Assembly: GCA_951406725.2 (NCBI GenBank) | Contig: OX597816.1 | Coordinates: 140,492,001 to 140,556,000 of the forward strand | Direction of reading: 5' to 3' | From: Octopus vulgaris | Lineage: Eukaryota | Length of the DNA: 64,000 nucleotides | Shown here: in pieces, positions 5,301 to 61,218 of the stretch | Numbering within the stretch: the first letter of the stretch is position 1 | Layout of the letters: each line of letters begins with the position of its first letter | Notes under the pieces: generated by a model | The model's input: the letters and a program-made list of their open reading frames with translations, nothing else | Told to the model about the DNA's origin: nothing | The model's database searches: none | Program-made: the position numbers and the translations under genes

Positions 5301-8300
5301 GAGTTTTAAGATCTGTCCAGACAGCCTACAAGTATTGTATGGTATCAGACAGAATCTGCTAAACAACAACAGAAATAAATACTGTATTTGATGCCATAAA
5401 AGATGAATGGGGATATCAACCCTTAAGCATTCAGATTATTCTGTCAAGTGTAATGCTTATTTATTCACACTGTTTTGTGTTAATCATACATTATCTTGTA
5501 GCTCTGAGATTTTGATAATGTAATTGTATATTTTTAGAATGATATTGTAGGGTAGATGTAAGAGGCCAGATCTGGCCAGTCTAAACATTAAACAGGTAAA
5601 ATATTTGGGCTTGATATGGCCGGTTTGAATGCTAAAGAGTTAAATACAACCCAATTTCAACAGTGCATATTCATAAAAAAATTTTAGTGCATTAAAGCTT
5701 ATGAGAAACTCAAATTTGAATATGAAACCTGGAGTGATTTTTTTTGAGAGCTTAAAAGCAAAGATAACATTCTCTGGGTCAAGAATAAATGCCTCAAGAA
5801 CTCTTCACTTCCATATGACATATATGATCCTGAAATTGCTGAACTACAGTACCTAAACAAAGACCTAGAAGAGAGACATAACCAAAAAGATTATGCATGG
5901 ATATGCATCCCATAAACTTAAGGATGATGATAACATTAACATGAATTGTAGTCTCTTTGATTCATGAACATTAAAATCACATTCAGATGTTATGCTTTTA
6001 CAATCCAGGAGCTTGAGATAACTACAAAATACTTAGTGAATAAGAGACTATGAAGTTCTTAAATCCACCTGGATATTACCCAAAATGTTACTTGTCCCAT
6101 TTCTGTAGAATATATTACACATAGAGCTTGAAAAGCTGAGGTTAATGCTAGTGATTAATGCAGTAAGGCTGAGGCTGTCAGCCGGTGCATGGAGTATTAT
6201 ATGCCTCAATCATGCAGAAACGAAAGTGTGGCATGCTGGCGTGTTGTGAAAGACAAACAAGTTTCTCTATGCATGCGTGACCAACCTAGGGTCTTACAGA
6301 GATGAATTGTGTCTACAAGGGCGCATTGAGCGTGGAAAACAAGCAAGGAAGGCATGTGTGGTGCATGAATGTGACAGAGATAGCATTTGTGTGTGTGTAA
6401 CAATGTGTGCCGATGCGTGTGCAAGGCCAGGCTGTCAGGAAAGGTGCATGTGTGTGTGTATGCCACAATGCAAACATTTTCAAAGTGAATGTGCAGTGCA
6501 AACAGAACAATAAAAAAAGCGAAAAATAGCTAACTAAACTGAAAATAGTGTCCTTTGTTAAAAGTCCACTGCTGAAAATGAAAAAAAAATGTGCATGCAA
6601 AGAAAAAGATTTGTGTAAGTCTATGTGAAAGTCTTATGTATGTGAAAAAGTTCATAGACAATGCAGGGTTTGTACGTCAGGACGAGACGAAAAGCATGTG
6701 TGCTGAAAAGGTTGCACGTGCGGGCTTCCATATCTTCTTCCAGTTAGTTTCTGGGCCTGTAGGTGAATACCTTGTTCGTCAGCTGTGTTGCATTGTTGTG
6801 AAGTGCATCGTAGACTGCATTGCAATATAGTGCTTTTTGCAGTAGGTCGATGGAGGATGCATCTTGGTGGTGACGGATTCTTTTTCTTTGGTTTAGCGAC
6901 TGTAGATATTCTAGTTCTTTAGTTCGAATCAGTAAAAATGCAACGGCATGTAGCATCGGGAGGTATCAATTCTCTTTACACGGGCTCACCAAGTTGTAAG
7001 CGATGAAGTTTAATTTTTGTAGCTTGTTATGGTGCAACGTTGGGGTTGCCAGTTTGTAACGGTTTGTAATGCAATTTCAGAAGGCATAGATTCTCTTTTT
7101 ACAAAGTCACCGATTGTAACGGCAAAAATTGTTGAAGTTGAGGGTCACCAATTATAACGGCCGATATTGATTTGTCGTGGTCAGCTGGTGTGACGATAAG
7201 TTGTTGTTATTATTGCATGTTGTAGAATGTGAAAGATGAACAATGCATGAAATTTTAAGGAAATATTTATTTACCGTTACGTTACAAATACCTTGCCTCA
7301 ACAGGTAGGTTGATAAATCCAAAAGCATGCGAAAGTAAAGTTTGCGTTTGTATCCTTTTCATTGTTTAGTAGTAATTGCTGAGACAGATAGAATGATGTT
7401 GTAGGAGAACGGAATTAGAGCTAGAGAGAAGTGTTGGGTGTTGTCTGTCAGTAAACTTCATTTCTCCCGCTGACTAAGGCTGGTCAGCCAGACCTCGTTG
7501 AGTTGTCACGACTGTGATGAACTTGGTTGAGTCATCATCACCGGCTGGTGACTAAACCGAATTTTGCTTGGGGTGTGCTTGCTTACATAAAGATCCAGAA
7601 GGATAGATATATCATTGAGAACAATAGATTTAATTGGAGGTCTTGTTATCTATTCTAGCTTTTGGTGAAGTAGAAGAAGTTAGAAAGGGTCAAGTAGTGA
7701 AGACATTATTTCGGCCTAGCTAAAGGCATCTGGGAAATGTAAAACTGCAGTCAGAGAAAAACCATTGTTCCACCATGGGAAAAGTTCTGTAGCAGTGTTG
7801 ATTTAAATTTGGCTATGGTGGATCGAATCTACTTTATGCATGCAAGATTCACTACACACTCCCTCTGCCAGTGAGATTCCTGGTAAGGAAATGACCGATC
7901 AAAGGAGACAAAGAAATGCATGGTAAATGTGAAATTTGGCATATCAGGCGAGAGGATCGTTGAAGTGTATACAGGACAGATTTCTATTCCGATTAGTTCG
8001 AATAGCAGTGTTGCTTTGCATGCCAAAATGTGTGCAGTCAGTGACTGGGCAGTACAGCAAATGAGCATGTGTGTGCACGTGAGGGTGTATACAGGAGTGC
8101 AGGGGCACGTTTCGAAATTGAATGTAAAATAAGCTCAGGTAAGCGAGTGAGTGATATGAAAGATCTTCCTGCAGGGTTGCAGTGTGTGAAATGCCTTGAA
8201 GGTGAAATGCCCTAAGTGAAATGCATCTGGTGCTGTTGTCGTGGTTAATTGCTGAGTTAGCAGGACGACAGTGTAGCATGCTGGAGTTGTGCGCGAGACA

Positions 8301-11300
8301 GATAATTTTCTCTGTTAATTACGTGACCAAACAGGGGTCTAACAGGGGAATATTATGTCTAACATGAGCACAGAGCATGAGATCATCCGACGTGCTTCAA
8401 GTCGGGAGAATCAATATAACAACAAAAATAAAGAAAAGAAATAACATCACTTACCTGTTGTTTTTCAGTAGTTACTCCTGTTTCAGGAAAAGAGTGGACA
8501 TTTATAAAACCCCCAGTAATACACATTTGCCCAGTTTCCACAATCTGAAATAGTCAAATAATAAAATATTAAATTTCAGGTTGTAAACAGACAGTAAAAA
8601 AGACAAAAACAGAAGATGGACATCATTTATTAAAAAGAGGTTATGATTTTCAAGACATCAGATCATTTGAGAAGCATCTCTCCCCTTAGATGGTTAGTGC
8701 ATTGTAGATTTTATTCGTGAGGGTGTATGGTCTGAGCACTGTAAATTTGTTTTATCACCTGATTTTGTAGTTAATAGTTCTTCTACTTAACCTGATATCA
8801 CTGTAGTTCTTTGTGTATAATTAAACCTTCTGGAAGAACTCACCGAGCATTGGAAATGAACACCAGAATCAACTTTCCACATTTCTGTTCGCAGAGTTTG
8901 CCCTGGTAAAAATGGTTTAGAAAACCGTGACTGAAAGAAAAAATAGAACTATGTAATATAAATTTGAAAGAGATGGGTGGCAGATTATTTTAAAAGAAAG
9001 AGTATGTTAGGATTTTTATGGTAATGTAGAATGACAAAACAGAAATGTGATTAGCTTATGGAATACATGGGCAGATATATTACCACAAAAAATAGTTGAA
9101 CACAGTTGCTAATATTGGACAAAATTAGTGTGGGACAAATAGAGTGCTACTAAGCTACATTTCAACAAATTACAGTGGGGCAAATGTTACGATATTTAAA
9201 GACAGCTACAGAGGGACATAGGTAATGCTACAAAGCTGCATTTGGACACACTTACAGTGGAGAAGAATGCTGTGTGTCTCATGGTTTAGGCTATTTTAAA
9301 TGTTCAGTCGCAGGAAGAAGAGCAGCATTCATGATATTTGTAGGATCATCTAGAGCAAAGGTTCTCAATGGGGGCCATTTGGAGCGGGGGCAGGGTGCGT
9401 TTTGAAGCAAAGGGGCACTAGGGGTGAGTGTTGAAATTAGTGTGTAGAAGCCATATTTTCACATCTCTGCAACAGTCAGTTTTAAAAAACTGTCTTTTTG
9501 TTTCAAATTTTCAGAAACTTGAAAAACACTCTTTCCACTGCAAATTCCTGGTACCAAGTGTAACCTAAGCAAATTCCTGCTACCATGTGCAACAGGTGTA
9601 GCTCAAGTGAAACCCCCAAAACAAAGAGATGAATAGTGACAGACGACTAAAAGACAAAAAAATGAATAAAAGCGAAAGGCTGAAATGTGTGTGTTTATGT
9701 GCAAATAAATAAAGAATGACAATCAAAATTTTGGAACAATTTTAGCTTTTGGGAATAGCTGATAGGTATGTATCTGTGTATGTGTGTGTATGTATGGGTA
9801 TGTTTGCATATATATGATTGTGTGTGTTGCCATTTTGAATTCCTTTCTGCAATTGAACTTAAATTGAGCCCTGGCTATTAAAACCCAACCACACACACAC
9901 TCGTTTGTTTTAGGTTTTGTACCCATTTGAACTGTGACCATACACTAGATAACATGGTAAGTCTTATGCTCTGAAATCGAAATTCTGAAATTGTTTCAAA
10001 TTATAAAATTACACCTCAACTGAAGACACATCTTTTGGCTTTTGGTAAACAGAACCCTTTCTTTCCCTTTCTATATTTTTGTTAAGTTAGGATTTCTCTG
10101 TTTTGGTCTGGATTTTCCAATTTCCTGTATCAAGCAATGGACGGAAGCATTTAGAAAAAATCAGTTTCATAGAACCAAACAAAATCAAAAAAGTTAATTT
10201 TAATCATAGTAATGGAGAGAAGTAAGCATTCTCCCTTTCCTTAATACTAACAAGAGCATAGTATGATGGAGATTAGCCTGTTATTTCTAACAAAGTGAAC
10301 AACCACACAGAGAGTACCACATTGGCTCATTTGTTAATGTGTATAAGTAAACAAAAACTGAAGGAAAAACAGACACTAGCAAACACACACACACACACAC
10401 ACACACAATTTAAATAATCAGAAAATGGACAAAACTTTTGATCAACAAACAAACAAATTGAACCACATCGGTTGATTATTATTTAATATAAAACATGACA
10501 TAGCATTTCTTAAGGTAATTTCTACTTCAAGTGTTAGTCGGTGCTTATGAAAGAAATTCTGAAAATAATATTTGTCATCCCCATAGCACATTCGATCTAG
10601 TACATGGAGCTTCATCAGAGTGAATACAAAAGTGTATAATAAAATGAACGAAGGGAAGAGGAAAGAACAGGACCTCGGGAAGAGGAAAGAACAGGACCTC
10701 GAGAAGAGGCCAGAAGGCTCAATATATTAAAATCATAACATCTTACAGTGTGTAGCTTGAAGTCCATAGGCAAAAGAGTGAACTAGCAGTGGCCTAAGGA
10801 AATATTCACAGAACCAGGGTGTTTAAGTAGTAGTGAAATGAAGTTAGTAATAAAATAAGACAAAAATTACTCATATGTCTAAAAAAAGAATAGTACTTAT
10901 GATATCGTAAATAGGGCTAGTTAATATTTATCCAAAACCATAGGGTTCTTATAATGGTGTACTTACTGAAATATTGTAAAGACCACCACCTGTTGTCTGC
11001 AATGGAATTGACCAAAGTCTATCCATCTCTATAATTGGTTAACTGTATTTGAACCAGGGGTAAAAGTTAAGACCATTGCAGGGATATGTAAATAAAAAAG
11101 AAAACAAACTAGTAAATAAAGGGTGTGGGGAGAAAAGACTGTAATATAAGTGGCCCAAGGCTGCTTATGGCCTTCTGCAACTTCTGAACCTAACATAAAT
11201 AAGAATAAAATAAATATTATTATCAATCAAACTGCAGTAATTTTTTATAGTTGAAGGGAGGCAACTTGATGCATGCTAATGGAATAACCAACAACAAAAA

Positions 11301-58531: not shown

Positions 58532-58737
58532 TGTAGGATCTTGCAGGCATGAAGTGGATTCGATCCACCATAGCCAAATTTAAATTAACACTGCAACAGA
58601 ACTTTTCCCGCAGTGGAACAATGGTTTTTCTGTGAAAGCAGTTTTACATTTTCCAGATGCCGTTAGCTAGGCCGAAATAATGTCTTCACCACTAGACCCT
58701 TATAACCTCTTCTACTTCACCAAAAACCAGAATAGAG
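58532..58737 (+). mobile_element. 5' fragment of the same LTR family
   Basis: tgtaggatcttgc..ccaccatagccaaatttaaattaacactgc..gctaggccgaaataatgtcttcaccact. Confidence 0.88.
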
Positions 58738-60440
58738 AGTCTGGCATGTAAGCATAAAGTTCATAGGGAAGCCCATCCAAACTAGGCGATTTACCCCTCA
58801 TGCAGCTAGCCATTACTTCCTGTATTTCAAAGGCTGTTATCGGCCTTTCGCAGCACTCCACCTCCGTTGCCGAGAGCCGCGTCAGTCTGTCAAAGTGGGA
58901 CGTGAAATCTATCCAGCTCACCGCTGCTCCCTAACAGTTGAGCGAAGTGCCACTGAAAGGCCGCAACATCTGTCTTAGATCAGTTATCATTTGCTCATCG
59001 TGGTCTGGCAAGGATCGGATCATAGATTTATTGCCACATCTTGCCTCTGCCATTCGGGCCCATTGACTGGTTTTTGTCTCTTCATATCTAAGTGCTCATG
59101 CCTTAGCTCTGGCAATACAAACTTTGTGTTTCTCATTGGAGAATTGGTTGAGTACCAATCTCGCTGCAAGCACGTCGGTTGTGATGCCTTGTCTAACTTT
59201 TTGACTAGCCCTGCCTCTACTCTGTTTCTTTCTACTAGTCCTTTGCTAAGGCTTATCAATTGTTTTCTAATCGCCCTTTTCAGGGCAAACCACCATTTAT
59301 TGTTCATTACTGCCCCTGTCAATGCCTTTTTAACTAGTTCACTAATCTGGTCGCTGAAATCTTTATGCACCAGCAACATGTTCAGCTTCCAGTAACCAGG
59401 TCCCCATCTGTGAAGCCTATCTAAATTGACTGTACAGATCATGAATTTGTGGTATGTGTAGTCGACTACTTTAAACTGTAGACAACCTTTGCTATCCTTA
59501 TCTGCTACTCTACAGAATGTCCTATCGAGGAAATAATCTGGATGATCCAATGTAGTTTGACCAGGTCCACACTGGAACATCCAGGAAATCCAATCAATAC
59601 CTGTCAGACATTTGGAATCGTCTGAGTAGGTTTGTGAGACTTTTGCACCCTCCTCTCATATCTACTAAACCTATATAGTCCTCCCTTACATCTAAAACTC
59701 CATTCCAATCCCCACCTAACACTAAAGAGCAGGACATTCCCAGACATCTGAAGGAATCTGGTAGTCTTGTCCCTGCCAGAGTATAGACGGCAACTAGCCT
59801 GAAAGTATGTCCTTCACTGCCTGTCATATCCAGGACTACCGACTTACCTTCCAGATCCATGAAGATCGTCTGTATTGCAAGATCCAGATTTCTATGAACC
59901 ATCACGGCGACTCCACCTCCAGCTTCCGGACGACTTGGAGATACATACACCTCATAGTCGTCAAAAATGAGTCAGAAGTCCCATGAGTCGGAGATTCTGC
60001 TTTCACTAATGGCCACTATGTCGACATTCAGTGCCTTGAAGTCCTTCAGGTGACCCCACTTCTAAAGCAACCCCAGGCCACGTACATTCATGCTACCTGT
60101 TTTGTACACGACCATGGTATCGGAAAAAGGAAAGAAAAGAAAAGAAAACTTACTTGGTTTTGTTTGGAGGGGTGGATTGCCCATCCAAACAAAACCAAGT
60201 AAGTTTTCTTTTTCTTTGGCTTGGGGTGTTTCCAACAGTAAATCACCAAGAATTCTCTTGGTGATATTCCCTCAAAAATCTCCAATTTCCTGTGAGAATT
60301 AGGTTTTTAAGTGTGTATATGTCTTTTGTGTTGTTTGAATGATTTGTATGTATGCAGGAAGGGAGATTGTGGGTATGACAAAATCGTCTGGTGTAATGTT
60401 TGTGTGTGTGTTATTATGTACTTCATTAATTCATTGTTTT
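58738..60440 (-). mobile_element. L1/Tx1-clade LINE remnant (ORF1 end; ORF2 endonuclease to pre-RT)
   Basis: MVVYKTGSMNVRGLG (ATG 60115), GGGVAV, LVLGGDWN, GPGYWKLN, GKSPSLDGLPYELY; frameshifted. Confidence 0.88.
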
Positions 60441-60536
60441 TTTGTGCTTATTGCCATGTAGTTGTTGGTTGACTTCTAGTGCACTCTGTGTATGTGTATG
60501 TATATACATATATATATATATGTATGTATGTATGTA

Positions 60537-61218
60537 TGTAGCGGATCTTGCCTGCATGAGTCGGATTCGGTCCACCATAGCCAAATTTAAATTAACACTG
60601 CTACAGAACTTTTCCTACAATTAAACAATGGTTTTTCTCTGACAGCAGTTTTACATCTTCCAGATGCCTTTAGCTAGGCCGAAATAATGTCTTCACCACT
60701 TGACCCTTTCTAACCTCTTCTACTTCACCAAAAGCTAGAATAGAGATAACAAGACCACCAACTAAATCTATTGTTCTCAATAATATATCTATCCTTCTGG
60801 ATCTTTATATAAGCAAGCACACCCCAAGCAAAAATCGGTTCATCACAGCCATGACAACTCAACGGAGTCTGGTTGACCAGCTAGGGAGAAAGCAACTGTG
60901 AGACAACACCCTACAATTCTCTCTAGCACTAATCCTGTCCCTTACAACATCATTCTATCTCTCTCTGTAATTACTACTACTAAACAATGAAAAGGACACA
61001 TATACAAACTTTACTTCGCATGCTTTTGGATGTATCAAAACCTGCCCGTCTAGGCAAGGTATTGTAACGTAATGGTAAATAAACATTTCCTTAAAACTTC
61101 ATTAATTTTTTTATCTTACACATCCTACAGTATGCAATCATAACAACAACTTTTTATCATCACACCAGCTAACACCGACACCATAATATTGCATACCTAA
61201 TAAATTAAAACGGTTACA
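60537..61218 (+). mobile_element. Solo LTR (682 bp) inserted in a TA-rich microsatellite
   Basis: TGTAG...GTTACA termini; homologous over nearly its full length to 7856-7153. Confidence 0.88.

Follow-up and report, generated by a model that had tools for sequence, protein, structure and literature searches.

The ends of an LTR retrotransposon and its single primer-binding site (PBS) are usually taken as fixed, and annotation tools assume that they are. In published accounts, the CsRn1 lineage is characterized by a tRNA-Trp PBS, a 4-bp target duplication and a GPY motif (PMC2582038; PMC3630058), the yeast elements Ty1 and Ty3 have a bipartite PBS, the two parts being separated in Ty1 by a small loop, with the copying of the tRNA reported as a dead end (PMC5371799), and Drosophila Gypsy carries two tRNA-Lys sites (PMC1635307). 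For HIV-1, plus-strand DNA is reported to stop at position 58 and, as a minor product, to pass m1A58 and stop at position 37, and a downstream complementary sequence, the primer over-extension sequence, can accept the over-extended DNA (PMC13191261).

Here we describe an LTR element without coding capacity, a member of an old, CsRn1-like Gypsy family, in a stretch of 64,000 nucleotides of the Octopus vulgaris genome, referred to below as the window. As in the CsRn1 lineage, the octopus family has a tRNA-Trp PBS, a 4-bp duplication, TGT...ACA ends and a purine tract, and its coding copies carry the integrase GPY motif, but whereas those accounts give the lineage a single PBS and an LTR end that does not vary, the octopus family has 2-6 modules and staggered right ends (PMC2582038; PMC3630058); the window copy differs further in being non-coding. 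The combination of a short PBS with a second tRNA-complementary segment (the box), a candidate from sequence and folding only, recalls Ty1 and Ty3 (PMC5371799), whereas in octopus tRNA-Trp serves as primer, the side of the tRNA that the box faces runs from the T-loop to the anticodon stem, and the whole unit is repeated. In contrast to the dead end recorded in yeast, tRNA copies are found integrated in octopus. Octopus read-through copies stop near position 37, as the minor HIV-1 product does, but the long HIV-1 products are described as minor and inactive, whereas the octopus copies have become fixed genomic sequence that bears a new end motif (PMC13191261). Drosophila Gypsy likewise offers its primer more than one site per element, but its second site lies at the 3' end, lacks an end motif, is dispensable and belongs to no array (PMC1635307). 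A literature search whose scope left aside subscription journals, Repbase and Dfam found no natural stacked array of end plus PBS; what appears to be new here is a natural array with a probably movable LTR end, as a variant of known Gypsy biology.

Results

A five-module array in a permuted, non-coding element

The sequence-only reading of the window had reported four modules on the minus strand, each an LTR end followed by a PBS, at 7160-7140, 7122-7102, 7062-7037 and 7002-6978, and all four are present. The pattern of an end motif followed after 2-3 nt by a PBS has exactly these four matches in the 64 kb, all inside a span of 200 nt, as against a mean of 0.03 and a maximum of 1 in 100 first-order Markov simulations, a result that speaks of clustering and not of discovery, as the pattern was derived from the four sites themselves. 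Directly upstream of them lies a fifth, decayed module of type A (7188-7153), assigned by eye, the automatic parser having given no score to this shortened copy; the array of the window thus reads A, B, E, F, G (Table 1).

The unit is circularly permuted, running from the 3' internal part through the LTR and the array to the 5' internal part, and about 70 nt of linker are absent from it. Its upstream LTR (7856-7173) is 81% identical to the sequence at 60534-61180, and the first end motif of the LTR core is the terminus of some solo LTRs, where it is accompanied by a 4-bp duplication. The proposal that the element is non-autonomous is well founded: LTR, PBS and purine tract are kept, coding capacity is absent, and coding relatives share the LTR. 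A tblastn search gave no match to intact pol from the family loci. A second circularly permuted copy (L146) has break points that differ from those of the window copy (6121-8410), and both look as if derived from circles with one LTR or from tandem elements that had been trimmed.

Within the LTR, a left-end-like motif at 7292-7270 reads as the end motif in reverse complement, and one solo LTR (L005) terminates about 100 nt into the body, in a 14-nt match to this left-end-like motif, with a perfect duplication. A shorter LTR starting from the internal motif near 7285 was considered and rejected, none being present among 23 copies that lack the usual start. One contig from a sequencing run covers 7066-7282 with one difference; the RNA origin of that run is a guess, and the contig is not evidence of expression.

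Table 1. Positions of the element, its modules and related LTRs in the window; numbers in brackets give the place of a module among the four noted originally
Feature	Position	Strand	Basis or remark
3' internal region, here upstream of the LTR	7860-8410	-	precedes the 3' LTR in other copies
Polypurine tract abutting the LTR	7859-7869	-	same tract precedes 3' LTRs elsewhere
LTR core, left end to first end motif (7197-7189)	7189-7856	-	LTR comparison
Module A (overlooked originally)	7153-7188	-	decayed PBS, shortened spacer, end motif 7160-7153
Module B (1)	7115-7152	-	PBS 7150-7140, 9/11 to tRNA-Trp; end motif 7122-7115
Module E (2)	7055-7114	-	decayed native PBS 7112-7102 (7/11); end motif 7062-7055
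Box in module E	7085-7077	-	complementary to tRNA-Trp variable loop and anticodon stem
Module F (3)	6995-7054	-	15-nt tRNA-Trp-like PBS 7051-7037; end motif 7002-6995
Module G (4)	6930-6994	-	last PBS 6991-6981 (10/11), native leader continuing into the body
5' internal region, non-coding	6121-6980	-	without long ORF
Solo LTR, same family	60537-61218	+	ends after module A, inside a TA repeat; flanks agree in 3/4 letters
Third LTR, 5' fragment	58532-58738	+	LTR comparison

Module types recur in a single order across the family

The 2.8-Gb assembly yielded 903 candidates for a query with the LTR end and 81 for one with the array plus body; scores were obtained for 40 from each set, and 113 distinct LTR 3' regions were parsed, a few of them segmental duplicates and some with diverged A modules that went unscored. 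The arrays are made up of seven recurrent module types (A, D, B, C, E, F and G), with 2-6 modules per 5' array. The spacers, taken at first for unique, are thus not so, as each module type is found again in other genomic copies, and modules E and G of the window are homologous to each other's type; the description of the units as cassettes of a U5 end and a PBS is borne out in these copies, which differ in module number. The array is also ordered, as had been supposed: a single module order holds in 163 of the 167 pairs from 43 arrays with at least two types (six duplicate loci removed), compared with at most 111 in shuffled arrays, with the provisos that the order was derived from the same data on which it is tested and that module instances share descent, so that counts are not independent events.

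Identity is 92-96% within coherent LTR pairs and only 71-86% within the others, and the family is therefore old and partly chimeric. Decayed gag-pol copies with the same LTR were found at four loci (L289, L290, L302 and L303), and an array stands before gag in L302 (three modules) and L310 (two), with L290 also bearing an array; coding elements of other families have a single PBS in 12 of 12 cases. A GPY/F motif follows the integrase core in the coding relatives L290, L302, L303 and L344, the window copy having no ORF. The spacing of the CHCC gag motif (CX2HX9CX3C) is seen in one of five coding relatives, with the His missing, and sister families, at about 60-70% identity in pol, have the motif intact. 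That the family is CsRn1-like is our claim, suggested by the tRNA-Trp PBS, the 4-bp duplication and the GPY motif. A young intact Trp family (L152) has different LTR ends, for which reason it was ruled out as the parent and kept as a single-PBS comparison. Two older full copies (L147 and L157) have a common deletion in the 5' LTR that is not in their 3' LTRs, and at L112 an LTR end and a full 18-nt PBS are followed by about 80 nt of other DNA and then by a second LTR of the window family.

The primer tRNA and two kinds of module

A pattern search for tRNA-Trp gave 35 genomic matches, and the tRNA-Trp 3' end read from the genes gives the expected PBS. About 19 tRNA-Trp gene matches are clustered within 85 kb (G000:C6:58378973-58461544). 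In a sample of nine host tRNA genes, the PBS of window modules B, E, F and G match tRNA-Trp at 9, 7, 8 and 10 of 11 positions, and Trp is beaten at these sites by none of the eight controls, although it is equalled at E by tRNA-Arg(TCG) and at F by three other tRNAs that also score 8. The Trp-like character ascribed to B and F from sequence is confirmed, at F in a tie; the suggestion that E and G use another tRNA finds no support among these nine genes, and the tails of both are the native leader of the clade.

Across copies, the PBS of types C and E are near perfect to tRNA-Trp (mean 10.1/11), near-fixed mismatches mark types A, D, F and G, and B has slipped by one letter, scoring 9/11 with Trp against 8/11 with Arg(TCG), where D scores 7/11 and 8/11, respectively. 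Types A and F match tRNA-Trp over 13-15 nt. A sister coding family with a single PBS, usually of 11 nt, has a leader to which the tails of C, E and G align, with mean scores of 12.6-25.5 against a null near -1 (s.d. 4.5). To judge from these alignments, C, E and G each duplicate the 11-nt PBS and leader native to the clade, A and F appear to carry longer tRNA copies, and B and D appear to be slipped or decayed sites.

Complementarity to the tRNA beyond the T-arm, in a box with at least 9 of 13 positions matched, is present in 17/19 C and 10/11 E modules, is decayed in G (5/21), and occurs in 0/118 modules of types A, D, B and F, with a null of at most 1.4%. Co-folding is predicted to pair the C/E box with the tRNA, the box score of window module E is reached by 1 of 2000 shuffles, and the extra complementarity of type E and of this module is significant for Trp only, among the nine tRNA genes. 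The native site would be bipartite, 11 nt followed by a downstream candidate box, which is a putative binding site or a kept relic of read-through. Module F had been considered as the holder of the tRNA 5' end, a candidate that was dropped, with 21-64 of 2000 shuffles reaching its score and older copies differing. At two loci with another LTR (L092 and L106) an inner module has a PBS-like start of non-Trp type, possibly for a different primer.

LTR ends are staggered and point to a probable priming site

Perfect 4-bp duplications flank 33 of 65 solo-type LTRs at their automatically called ends (permutation mean 2.3, maximum 9) and 0 of 104 passed-over end motifs; among the 32 calls without a perfect duplication, several were judged by eye to be miscalls. 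The question of whether solo LTRs end at different modules is answered by 31 verified solos (2 doubtful ones removed), which carry perfect 4-bp duplications and end at the first motif in 3 cases, after one module in 16, after two in 11 and after four in 1. A C, E, F or G module is present in one of these and the other 30 stop upstream of any; the offsets of the first C/E module in 23 arrays (6, 6, 6 and 3, with 2 arrays lacking one) form the same set as the offsets of the solo ends. From this agreement we infer that priming likely takes place mostly at the first native-type site (C/E), which in the window would be module E. Types A, B and D would then ride along within the LTR, and downstream sites would seldom be used.

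The long solos (L209, L005 and L012) could be deletions between an end motif of the array and the end of the 3' LTR, so that 3' LTRs lying behind the purine tract are the cleaner evidence. These end at the first motif in L126, after A in L125, L151, L070 and L130, after A and B in L123 and L124, after three modules in L135, after E in L179, and after A, C and part of F in the coding relative L290; in L123, L124, L135, L179 and L290 the 3' LTR next to the tract ends past extra modules, at an end motif. In a second sample of 65 copies, picked by pattern upstream of the array and with ends read by eye, 5, 33, 15 and 4 end after 0, 1, 2 and at least 3 modules, respectively, 6 run into the body and 2 are cut by repeats. 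Exceptions to the rule of the first C/E site are L124 (B only in the 3' LTR), L126, with its end at the first motif, and L130, which ends after A although B precedes C; these copies may be chimeric, or other sites may be in use.

Such exceptions bear on a reading in which the intact sites of an RNA all serve with roughly equal frequency and the element benefits from keeping the array as a bank, for primer capture or as decoys against silencing by tRNA fragments. LTRs that end past a C/E module (L209 with a duplication, L179, L290) or upstream of the first C (L126, L130) are what equal use would produce, and dual initiation is reportedly seen in engineered vectors with two PBS; we nevertheless consider this reading unlikely in view of the 30 of 31 verified solos that end before any C, E, F or G, the near-fixed mismatches in the first 11 nt of A, D and F, and the one PBS in all 12 coding elements of other families.

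Very unlikely, in our estimate, is a passive origin by tandem duplication at the DNA level, with the staggered ends due to post-insertion deletions between end motifs. The 3' LTRs that end past extra modules stand behind intact purine tracts, 19 of the 57 readable ends in the pattern-based sample read by eye lie beyond at least two modules, which is many for 8-nt homology, and the ends avoid C, E and F, though these bear end motifs too; read-through copies, moreover, require a tRNA template. These observations weigh against it even though C, E and G are duplicates, with CCC or EE runs in some copies, chimeric LTR pairs occur, and a deletion between end motifs would preserve the 4-bp duplication.

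Integrated copies of the primer tRNA in other families

Exact matches to an end plus a 15-nt Trp PBS numbered 46, of which 41 were fetched, and in 8 of these 41 full-PBS loci a tRNA copy matched at 17-21 of positions 19-40. In two solo LTRs of other Trp-primed families (L109 and L103), the LTR is followed by a tRNA copy of 38-40 nt and a re-copied end motif, with a perfect 4-bp duplication, and an older relative of the window LTR (L220) has the same anatomy with a duplication of 3/4. At L157, a module with an 18-nt PBS is found at the 3' LTR and is absent from the 5' region. Read-through ceases near tRNA position 37, where A stands in place of C in 4 of the 5 copies that extend to it. Changed letters are seen opposite position 37 in L103, L117, L221 and L226 and opposite position 58 in L095, L113, L219 and L221, and these would fit a misreading of modified bases.

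A small, unrelated, non-coding LTR family of 250 candidates (L095, L097, L108, L349-L378) has, in most of 30 loci, a fixed module made of a tRNA-Trp read-through and an old U5 end, together with a second short PBS, and the first motif is where its 3' LTRs terminate. The LTR end that precedes this module differs among several copies, a sign that LTRs may have been swapped, and L097 has four sites. A young, coding Gypsy family primed by tRNA-Trp, many of whose integrases are identical (L152 and L259-L338), usually has a PBS of 11 nt, but one copy matches the tRNA over 17 nt, suggesting an inherited primer copy.

Discussion

In the reading that we prefer, with a probability of roughly 0.68, the array was built by slips of reverse transcription in a CsRn1-like family primed mostly at its first native-type site. 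By one route, plus-strand DNA would copy 13-40 nt of the tRNA primer, sometimes beyond position 58, and slip back onto the U5 end, gaining a new end motif, the products being types A, F and perhaps B and D. By a second route, the junction of U5 end, PBS and leader would be duplicated, giving C and E from a G-like module. With starts mostly at the first bipartite site, everything upstream would join both LTRs, and skips between repeats would yield varied subsets of modules. Integrable DNA would come only from units with an integrase-type end motif at the terminus, so the anatomy would persist without needing to be of benefit. The array is likely an accreted record of such slips, in which the LTR end is movable and the terminal repeat has been lengthened stepwise. 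Read as re-copies of the family's own U5 ends, the module ends match weakly, the best case (B-D) being reached by 8 of 300 shuffles and most not being significant.

A broader version, rather unlikely in our judgment, would have Trp-primed Gypsy elements generally grow their LTRs by a tRNA copy plus a re-copied end, absorb these through downstream bipartite priming, and keep the bank of sites for primer capture or for soaking up silencing tRNA fragments. The original proposal, of a non-autonomous element in which cassettes taken from several helper families, or serving several tRNAs, were stacked, is highly improbable, since the module ends match none of the 27 sampled U5 ends of other families above shuffles, arrays are also present in gag-pol copies with this LTR, and the additional tRNA complementarity seen in type E, including window module E, is significant for Trp alone among the nine tRNA genes, the fits of B and D to tRNA-Arg(TCG) and the different LTR ends before one module in the small unrelated family being the points in its favor.

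In this family of hundreds of LTRs, the boundary is seen to shift stepwise, with target duplications marking each used end. Integrated copies of the primer tRNA that extend well beyond position 58 suggest that what is a dead end in Ty elements and a minor product in HIV-1 is sometimes inherited. The data suggest that CsRn1-like elements have a bipartite PBS, and they yield a testable rule, namely that the first site with a downstream box sets the LTR end.

Elsewhere in the window, the minus strand at 59100-60120 holds a stretch that resembles, as read by eye, a decayed LINE endonuclease region, and an 83-bp inverted repeat at 60136-60217 adjoins this LINE-like stretch.
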